Shown here piece after piece: positions 1 through 22,615 of a stretch of DNA of 26,059 nucleotides. The stretch is from NCBI GenBank assembly GCA_034530875.2, contig JAVRCJ020000066.1:1-26059 (forward strand), in the 5' to 3' direction. The number at the start of each line of letters is the position of its first letter. The stretch's first letter is position 1. Source of the stretch: Nostoc sp. DedSLP01 (GTDB lineage Bacteria; Cyanobacteriota; Cyanobacteriia; Cyanobacteriales; Nostocaceae). A program made the position numbers and the translations under genes. The notes beneath the pieces were generated by a model. That model was not told the DNA's origin and made no database searches. It saw only the letters and a list, made by a program, of their open reading frames with translations.

Positions 1-73
1 CGGTCTTGAGCAATTTGAGTCTACCTTTTTTGGCTGGAAACTCGCTCTGGGTCTACTTGTGTGTACACCGTAG
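1..73 (+). mobile_element. Right end of an IS4-family (IS50-group-like) insertion sequence: transposase C-terminus plus 19-bp terminal inverted repeat (partial, runs off the window)
   Basis: The frame from position 2 reads GLEQFESTFFGWKLALGLLVCTP* (TAG 71-73), resembling the '..WRGL..F....GW' tail of IS50/Tn5-type transposases. 55-73 ACTTGTGTGTACACCGTAG is the reverse complement of CTACGGTGTACACACAAGT, which shares CT...ACACAAGT and its 19-bp length with the IS50 outside end CTGACTCTTATACACAAGT. Confidence 0.65.
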
Positions 74-206
74 CCTTTATAAGGGGAGGGTTAGGGAGGG
101 GTAATTCGAGGACTGCTAGTGATTCGAGAACTTATGTGTACACCGTAGCCTTTACAAGGGGAGGGTTAGGGTGGGGTAAAATTCCAGACTTGTGTGTACG
201 CCCTAG
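74..206. repeat. Two nested MITE-like shells: half-hairpin (CCTTTAYAAGGGGAGGGTTAGGGWGGGGTAA) followed by further IS50-like terminal repeats
   Basis: TIR copies at 130-148 (ACTTATGTGTACACCGTAG) and 188-206 (ACTTGTGTGTACGCCCTAG). The TIRs at 55-73 and 130-148 are each followed by the same half of the hairpin repeat. Confidence 0.75.
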
Positions 207-321
207 AATTAAAACCAGGGAGAGGTTCGCAGAAATTACGTTAACCGAATACTATTATGTGTCAAAAACTGAAAGCATAAATTTGCCGTTGTGGCAAACT
301 TATGACTAAAGCCACATTTTG

Positions 322-14841: not shown

Positions 14842-14917
14842 GGGGAGTGGGGAGTGGGGAGTGTGGGGAGTGTGGGGACTAGGGGGAAAGATTTCTTCCC
14901 AATGCCCAATGCCCAAT
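14842..14917. repeat. STRR heptamer/nonamer arrays (GGGGAGT)n and (CCCAATG)n
   Basis: Tandem repeats read directly between the NDH-2 stop and the dapL start. Confidence 0.85.
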
Positions 14918-17679: not shown

Positions 17680-17842
17680 TAATTCGTAATTCGTAACCCT
17701 CCGACTTGTAAGTGGGGAGTAGGGAGTGGGGAGTAGGGAGTGGGGAAATACCACTTTCATACTTGGTGGTGAAACTTGTTTCATTGGGACTGCCTCCTGC
17801 TCCCTGCCTCCTGCCCCTTGCCTCCTCCTGCCTCCTGCCTTC
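17680..17842. repeat. Mixed heptamer arrays (AATTCGT), (GGGAGTR) and (CTGCCTC) between convergent ilvC and treH
   Basis: Tandem repeats read directly from the sequence. Confidence 0.85.
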
Positions 17843-22426: not shown

Positions 22427-22615
22427 GAGGGTGTTTGAAAAACCATAATTGATGTATCAAATATTTTTTACCCCACCCTAACCCTCCTCTTGTAAAGGGG
22501 CTACGGTGTACACACAAGTTATCGAATTACCCCACCCTAACCCTCCCCTTATAAAGGGGAGGGAACTAGATTTCTTATTTCCCCCCTTTACAAGGGGGGA
22601 TTAAGGGGGGTAAAA
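22427..22615. mobile_element. Composite MITE relic: IS5-like end, hairpin repeats and one IS50-like TIR
   Basis: TAA|GAGGGTGTTTGAAAA at 22427, half-hairpin CCCCACCCTAACCCTCCTCTTGTAAAGGGG, TIR CTACGGTGTACACACAAGT at 22501-22519 (exact reverse complement of 55-73), then intact CCCTCCCCTT-ATA-AAGGGGAGGG and TCCCCCCTT-TAC-AAGGGGGGA hairpins. No partner ends found. Confidence 0.7.

Follow-up and report, generated by a model that had tools for sequence, protein, structure and literature searches.

Tn5 provides the model transposase of the IS4 family, and its workhorse, and shows only a weak target preference. The family is characterized by a D(60-110)D(100-150)E triad and a YREK motif, and within it the IS50 subgroup is delimited by element size, an end consensus and a direct repeat of 8-9 bp (De Palmenaer, 2008, PMC2266710). 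In Sinorhizobium meliloti, all copies of the IS4-family element ISRm22 lie at the palindrome axis of REPs of the C-tract/G-tract class, and hybrid copies with unlike direct repeats occur, as they do for the element considered here (Tobes and Pareja, 2006, PMC1525189). Frameshifting is listed for IS1, IS3, IS5 and IS630, a list that does not mention IS4 (PMC5009743).

Two kinds of repeat are also relevant to this locus. BoxC/PIT/TM motifs are intergenic and consist of a C tract, a short loop, a G tract, TTA and a second G tract; they are abundant in Anabaena, Nostoc and Microcystis and are tied to genome instability, while no transposon link was found for those of E. coli K-12 (Holder, 2015, PMC4666352). 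MITEs that insert into members of their own family are represented by Castaway and Gaijin of rice (reviewed in PMC5172404), and the cyanobacterial MITEs described in Nostoc and Anabaena (Nezha, Muzha; Wolk, 2010; Fewer, 2011) are hairpin-rich and 130-220 bp long (PMC3184786).

The stacked ends and the element behind them

The window, that is, the whole stretch of DNA that was analysed, comprises 26,059 nucleotides of Nostoc sp. DedSLP01 and is the entire contig C66 of the genome of this strain (G000; 8.57-Mb in 113 contigs), with base 1 at the contig start. C-numbers denote contigs and L-numbers fetched loci. Its first 206 bases, which adjoin aspS (322-2109), had been predicted to hold an IS50-like element inside two MITE shells, each entered at the apex of the same hairpin. 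The layout behind this prediction was confirmed: three 19-bp TIRs lie in the same orientation at 55-73, 130-148 and 188-206, the outermost being the most degenerate (0, 1 and 2 mismatches, respectively, to the commonest form); the half-hairpin CCTTTAYAAGGGGAGGG follows both inner TIRs, at 74-90 and 149-165; and the hairpin is intact at 22541-22563, with a 10-bp stem and a 3-nt loop. The stop codon of the transposase tail overlaps the innermost TIR, as proposed, since the frame 2 TAG forms the last three bases of that TIR. The predicted mirror half upstream is unreadable because the window starts at a contig end. The features are as follows.

1..73, + strand: right end of a 1,487-bp IS4-family, IS50-like IS, with the last 23 codons and the stop (TAG 71-73), truncated where the contig begins; its 73 bp recur with 100% identity at the right end of the full element at G000:C12:111887-113373
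55..73, - strand: right TIR of the IS, exact by TIR comparison
74..104, + strand: hairpin A half of the first shell, with a predicted copy of the 11-bp duplication (74-84), the outer arm and the third G tract
105..148, - strand: first MITE shell, a 25-nt spacer and a TIR (130-148, 1 mismatch)
149..179, + strand: hairpin A half of the second shell, its loop unlike that of the first
180..206, - strand: second shell, an 8-nt spacer and an eroded TIR (188-206, 2 mismatches)
207..228, - strand: remnant of another repeat family, of which G000 has 8 intact copies; likely an eroded fourth layer
22427..22500, + strand: left portion, ending in a half-hairpin, of a repeat whose terminal motif is different; host of the second insertion in the window
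22501..22613, + strand: solo TIR (22501-22519, exact), then an intact hairpin pair A+B (A at 22541-22563)

The 11-mer at 74-84 is the duplication seen at locus L242, and the first shell (74-148) equals the half-MITE of that locus at 71/75 bases, with 4 differences. The 8-nt spacer of the second shell is found in one of 127 genomes of the genus, namely G000. Intact copies of the repeat family represented at 207..228 carry a hairpin that is hit by the IS50-like element at other loci, L207 showing a TIR at that hairpin. The unit at 22501..22613 shares 88-92% identity with the left half of a DUF559 cassette of relatives, and its missing right TIR was likely lost via recombination with the hairpin pair of the host repeat. 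No Rfam match was found in the window. Short heptamer-type tandem repeats at 14843-14875 and 17708-17745 and a 30-bp inverted repeat at 2333-2399 were also observed; such repeats are typical of filamentous cyanobacteria.

A full IS4 transposase had been predicted upstream of the window, and the complete element with an identical right end is present elsewhere in G000, on C12. This is the one fully assembled copy; with the twelve further ends located at contig ends, the count comes to 7 on the left and 7 on the right, and all of them are 100% identical. In three runs, which are possible sources of the assembly and so not independent, the IS is covered about 9-10 times as deeply as its flanks. 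This ratio is not a copy number; set against the 7 ends assembled, it indicates that some ends are probably missing from the assembly. Reads of the three runs aligned to the full IS yielded no junction for the window locus.

The IS50-like identity assigned to the element from its tail is supported along several lines. Against NCBIfam NF033590 (cut-off 160) the transposase scores 377 bits, and Tn5 proteins account for all six of its matches in the PDB (E 2.8e-39, covering residues 22-454); the match to PF14706 is a fragment. The triad of the IS4 family is present as D77, D181 and E322 of the long frame, with spacers of 103 and 140, and the Y(2)R(3)E(6)K motif as YTWRWRIEQIFATLK. The length of 1,487 bp falls within the 1,350-1,550 bp of the IS50 subgroup, and both ends match its consensus, CW------Y---CA-A--W-. 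The duplication is of about one helix turn, as in the IS4 family (9-12 bp, with 10-11 bp in 48/57 targets); the 8-9 bp of the IS50 subgroup is matched by only 7/57 targets, all of 9 bp, in a set from which lengths below 9 were filtered out. The single ORF of the IS4 family is replaced by an N-terminal GDPRL stretch and a remainder in different frames in 17/17 distinct 5' ends. Because of this split frame the element is filed as IS4-type and ISSysp3-like rather than as a canonical IS4 member, and because longer duplications and a split reading frame depart from IS50, it is called IS50-like. The closest named relative is ISSysp3 (RefSeq 'IS4-like element ISSysp3 family transposase', NC_010474.1), with 64.8% amino-acid identity over the full protein. 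Close relatives occur in 12/126 other genomes of the genus (E 1e-100), and relatives in 12/200 genomes across the phylum (E 1e-40).

In each of the 17 distinct 5' ends that have GDPRL-type codons, these are followed by an A4-7G5 run, after which the homologous protein continues in the -1 frame. With slightly wider limits (A3-7G5-6), the run stands at the frame switch at L001:4234-4243 (IS positions 132-141) and in 19 other distinct 5' ends. It extends from cyanobacteria to rhizobia, with such a run in 6/7 alphaproteobacterial copies, and is missing in L268, L273 and L274. The run splits the Tn5-type DNA-binding domain: the downstream frame aligns to positions 23-58 of a 58-position profile of that domain (E 0.001, under the cut-off), and an in-frame relative to positions 1-58 of the same profile. 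Taken by itself, the upstream frame matches nothing in Pfam, and it aligns weakly with an in-frame relative (7/16, E 0.11). In four elements the downstream frame has a stop ahead of the A/G run, and RefSeq places the gene start after it. The frame change is a putative programmed recoding of the transposase.

Nesting and composite movement

Bases 1-206 are the right end of a recently active IS50-like element and two MITE halves, probably brought together by repeated cut-and-paste insertion at the centre of a C-rich/G-rich palindrome, whose two-fold symmetric sequence is likely what the transposase recognizes. In the mechanism proposed here, successive insertions at the centre of this palindromic repeat would stack the layers, and a transposase dimer would recognize pyrimidine (C-rich) tracts on both sides, the sequence at the cuts being about CYCY|CC...GG|RGRG. 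With a single TIR common to the inner and outer layers, any left end could pair with any right end, so that composites would move as units; recombination between repeated hairpin pairs would delete TIRs.

Nested arrangements were considered in 40 regions of four near-complete genomes where TIRs stand in tandem or in pairs; the regions were hand-picked and so show occurrence, not rates. The mirror-image dolls that the original prediction called for exist in complete form in relatives: L242 is a MITE in a MITE with 11-bp duplications at both levels, L246 is likewise symmetric with duplications at both levels, and L063 has the IS inside a MITE that itself lies in a repeat of a different family. 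In G000, joins between contig ends place an IS in a MITE twice, C3/C23 by the inner duplication and C47/C75 by the outer. Five further loci (L047, L064, L223, L224, and L245) are one-sided composites, in which the duplication links an outer TIR to the inner element's far TIR; judged by these repeats, a half shell moved together with its guest. L047 and L063, from one genome, share an identical 74-bp shell half and their IS bodies differ at one base; they are likely daughter and parent. Stacked TIRs thus need not imply a mirror half, contrary to the prediction.

The window stack itself may be a symmetric doll or a one-sided stack. The chance that it is one-sided, arising by a composite jump or by insertion followed by collapse between hairpin pairs and having no full mirror upstream, is put at slightly below even. 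The flank that a mirror would need was sought at all contig ends of G000 and not found, the one-sided composites of relatives carry outer duplications, three DUF559 cassette loci (L342, L347, and L358) have partnerless stacked same-direction TIRs like those of the window, and the TIR at 22501 is solo. Against this, symmetric dolls are also common, and read depth indicates that ends are missing from the assembly. No empty site is available for the window locus, the 3' flank of aspS being non-syntenic in 19 relatives; the DNA 3' of aspS differs in nearly all of these (L007-L025) and often bears repeats.

Rearrangement at such sites is common. Unlike loops flank 15/49 pairs with a half-hairpin on both sides, which hides their history. 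Full IS copies with flanks from different targets were found at C12:111887-113373 (L001), L054, L062, L065 and L232; as these include near-complete genomes, they indicate recombination or adjacent deletion, beyond misassembly alone. A same-direction TIR lies outside 6/75 ends in G000 and 5/144 in a wider sample. Four elements (C14:93279-93433, L071, L225, and L222) have mirror-image loops on both flanks and no direct repeat, possibly from conversion between long inverted arms. The starts of C28 and C23 carry identical 73-bp MITE halves with different outer flanks, and this half is possibly a composite daughter. The same TIR also bounds other cargo: a 56-bp minimal form at C12:89135-89190, a 19-bp tandem array at C18:86028-86264 and another palindrome at C10:241408-241568.

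Target choice

G000 has 75 copies of the TIR at up to 3 mismatches. A half-hairpin of the form CTT-NNN-AAG(G) precedes 12/14 IS ends and 39/75 TIR ends, compared with 0.052% of random positions, so the flanks are non-random and the hairpin enrichment that a genome-wide tabulation was predicted to reveal is present. The hairpin loop in G000 is 3 nt in 156 cases and of other lengths in 6, and its sequence varies freely, even within one MITE subfamily. A scan of a wider collection returned at least 124 loci, and all but one of the 80 titled were cyanobacterial. At 146 ends of the listed loci, positions -16 to -9 are C-rich and -4 to -1 G/A-rich, with the exact half-hairpin in 36.

Targets were rebuilt from 117 TIR pairs drawn from the collection loci, the loci around related transposases and G000; the target set consists of the 57 with a duplication of at least 9 bases at no more than 1 mismatch, the other 60 being set aside. 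Duplications are of 10 bp in 25 targets, 11 bp in 23, 9 bp in 7 and 12 bp in 2, so the expected 9 bp was not borne out. The targets pair at 6 or more of 8 positions in 42/57 cases (7.4% at random), and in 34/42 of these pairing targets no more than 1 bp separates the palindrome axis from the middle of the duplication. Nesting by repeated entry at the hairpin centre is supported; several duplications lie 1-3 bp off the hairpin apex.

The target preference extends beyond cyanobacteria. Seven copies from alphaproteobacterial plasmids, a hand selection from 64 matching records, all have perfect 9-11-bp duplications, and 6/7 lie between a C tract and a G tract. The same placement holds for 7/9 copies of a distant clade that is 30% identical and has another TIR. 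L271 is a copy inside a hairpin of opposite polarity, and no element ends could be placed at L273 and L274. A second, distant IS50-like family with another TIR was also seen on C-tract/G-tract hairpins in G000 (the C35 end, C11, C24, C33, and C68) and at L035-L046, including an AT-rich genome in which the targets resemble terminators.

The simplest account of the target is a symmetric sequence read by a transposase dimer. Both arms are pyrimidine-rich in 49/57 targets (5.3% at random). Recognition of an extruded structure, a cruciform or an intrastrand triplex cut around its loop, is unlikely, and targeting directed by structure is unsupported in the form originally proposed. This reading would explain the strong pairing and centring of the targets; in addition, real arms match each other more than shuffled arms (5.89 vs 5.15, 0/2,000 shuffles), and the repeat resembles BoxC/TM motifs, which fold as triplexes when they are oligonucleotides (PMC4666352). 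However, in each of the 21 targets whose 7-bp stem is perfect the left arm is the C-rich one, although C-left hairpins are only 222/3,533 of perfect hairpins in G000 and 198/828 of the GC-rich ones, and 36/57 targets have no perfect 7-bp stem. The displacement of several duplications from the apex also speaks against cutting around a loop. When genome sites were matched to targets by score, with a background from one genome and targets from many, pairing was equal in the top score bin (7.39 for sites vs 7.25 for targets, of 9), so that the strongest sites show no pairing excess. In the three lower bins the targets exceed the matched sites in pairing by 0.3-0.75, a small difference in favour of structure, much of which is accounted for by strong sites being mostly palindromic repeats anyway, and structure may contribute to the choice; 8/57 targets score below 4 bits. 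By a crude test the third tract is present in 23/57 targets vs 107/177 intact hairpins, which leaves a need for that tract unsupported and counts against a triplex.

In G000, 22 TIR pairs 45-300 bp apart are short, share their TIRs with the autonomous element and encode no transposase, which makes them MITEs; 9 pairs have a duplication, and the window shells show one end each. The proposal that these MITEs carry the hairpin that their own transposase targets is upheld by a strong site in 17/22 of them. The 'self-renewing landing pad' derived from it is not borne out as stated: self-nesting is real, but own-family MITEs hold a minor share of the strong sites in G000 (46/196, or 43/177 by plain pattern) and are not preferred. 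Enrichment of the IS in its own MITEs is not significant (3 of 8-10 sites, p 0.28-0.43). The other strong sites lie mostly in repeats with at least 5 other terminal motifs, one of which is present at 78/109 loci in G000. Self-nesting is therefore a real but minor part of use of a shared target pool.

Selection contributes as well, with the target acting as a safe haven: long ORFs cover 72% of the genome and contain 2/75 TIR flanks, so selection surely adds to the distribution. That it is the whole explanation, near-random insertion being followed by survival only of copies in intergenic repeats, is very improbable, as selection can neither bring cuts to within 1 bp of a palindrome axis nor put one motif at 12/14 identical recent ends given 196 strong sites. 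Simple tandem duplication as the source of units 74-148 and 149-206 can be given hardly any weight, for although the units have 29/31 bases in common on the hairpin side and 16/19 in the TIR, their loops differ, unit 1 is closer to the half-MITE of another genome, and their spacers (25 vs 8 nt) are unrelated in sequence and start like two different MITE subfamilies.

Origin of the hairpin and comparison with known systems

The hairpin is not an invention of the MITE; it is a repeat resembling BoxC/triplex motifs, found on the flanks of DUF559 nuclease genes and in at least 5 other repeat families. It has the three-tract layout of BoxC/PIT/TM motifs but differs at 4 positions from the E. coli BoxC/TM(ECO) consensus, which has no match at up to 2 mismatches in G000, so that the repeat is BoxC-like only. 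Folding calculations, with a program that models hairpins and not triplexes, gave hairpins, and a DNA search of E. coli genomes with the hairpin pair found no match.

Both DUF559 genes of G000 (C14:84426-85158 and C19:145856-146653) lie between hairpin pairs and TIRs. A hairpin lies within 350 bp of DUF559 at 29/30 of the best-scoring loci of the genus and at 26/28 loci of the phylum, two truncated loci being dropped, compared with 0.43% of random windows and 2/19 aspS flanks; a stricter test gave 13/30 and 21/30. The TIR of the element is absent from all 60 of those loci, so the pairing of gene and hairpin is older and independent. A further 20 DUF559 loci (L339-L358) were chosen because they score close to the G000 genes. 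Fifteen of them, at 87-91% identity, occupy a complete or incomplete cassette of the order TIR-pair-gene-pair-TIR; both TIRs are present in 7 and a 10-bp duplication with one mismatch in 3. Most of these loci share flanks and count as one event.

The cassette, of 626-706 bp, is a non-autonomous element with a passenger. Without the gene and one hairpin pair it would measure 125-141 bp, and its halves match MITE halves at 76-92%. By these lengths and identities, the MITE likely descends from, or exchanges with, the cassette of TIR, dimer, DUF559, dimer and TIR; collapse of a cassette into a MITE and entry of the gene into a MITE both fit. A wider scenario, in which DUF559 nucleases spread the hairpins, a clade of Tn5 relatives spanning cyanobacteria and rhizobia became site-specific and self-throttled by the conserved frame change in its DNA-binding domain, and a DUF559 cassette captured whole in Nostoc collapsed into the MITE that seeds further sites, is offered only tentatively as a possible but rather doubtful history. 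If true, such a three-party system would provide a naturally site-specific Tn5 homologue and a mechanism for instability at BoxC/TM repeats.

Several names have been considered for the MITE. Nezha was rejected on indirect grounds: its partner ISNpu3 belongs to subgroup IS4, not IS50, and the end consensus of subgroup IS4 differs. The MITE may already have a name, and could be Muzha (about 154 bp, A. variabilis). For IS186, targeting of BoxC is unconfirmed, since the one copy read, IS186A of E. coli, lies in a GC palindrome whose polarity is opposite, and the literature search returned nothing on it.

Of the named elements, ISSysp3 is most like the one described here, with 1,485 bp, a near-identical TIR, a 10-bp duplication and the same A/G run after the GDPRL codons; the literature searches yielded no account of how it selects targets, of its MITEs or of a frame change. 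IS50/Tn5 is alike in size, end consensus, DDE spacing, YREK motif and full-length similarity of the transposase, whereas the present element has a duplication mostly of 10-11 rather than 8-9 bp, a strong target preference and a DNA-binding domain spread over two frames. ISRm22 shares the IS4 family, the repeat class, axis insertion and hybrid copies, and differs in its subgroup (IS4Sa), its ends and a reported repeat of 6 bp (PMC1525189). Targeting of this kind, which had been thought unusual for the IS group, is therefore already published for the IS4 family; the passages of PMC1525189 on ISRm22 describe no target-carrying MITEs or composites.

The window hairpin resembles BoxC/PIT/TM motifs in layout, and is unlike them in its mismatches to the E. 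coli consensus and in being a transposon target. Castaway and Gaijin, like the MITEs of the window, nest in their own family but are eukaryotic; compared with these plant MITEs, self-nesting in the window is a by-product of a defined target common to other repeat families. No report was found on hairpin targeting by IS50-like elements or on target-carrying cyanobacterial MITEs, in a search that ISfinder and several key papers lay outside.

Target capture in this group becomes directly testable with a Tn5 relative whose target is sharp and symmetric and whose cut stagger is longer, and such a relative may serve as a tool. IS insertion offers a concrete explanation for some of the instability reported at BoxC/TM repeats, nesting explains the stacked, mosaic repeats that break cyanobacterial assemblies, and the cargo of the MITE is tied to the DUF559 cassette. 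Landing of an IS on a REP axis and nesting of MITEs were already known; what is new is an IS50-like clade at the palindrome axis, MITEs that carry the target, movement of composites and a conserved frame change in the transposase.
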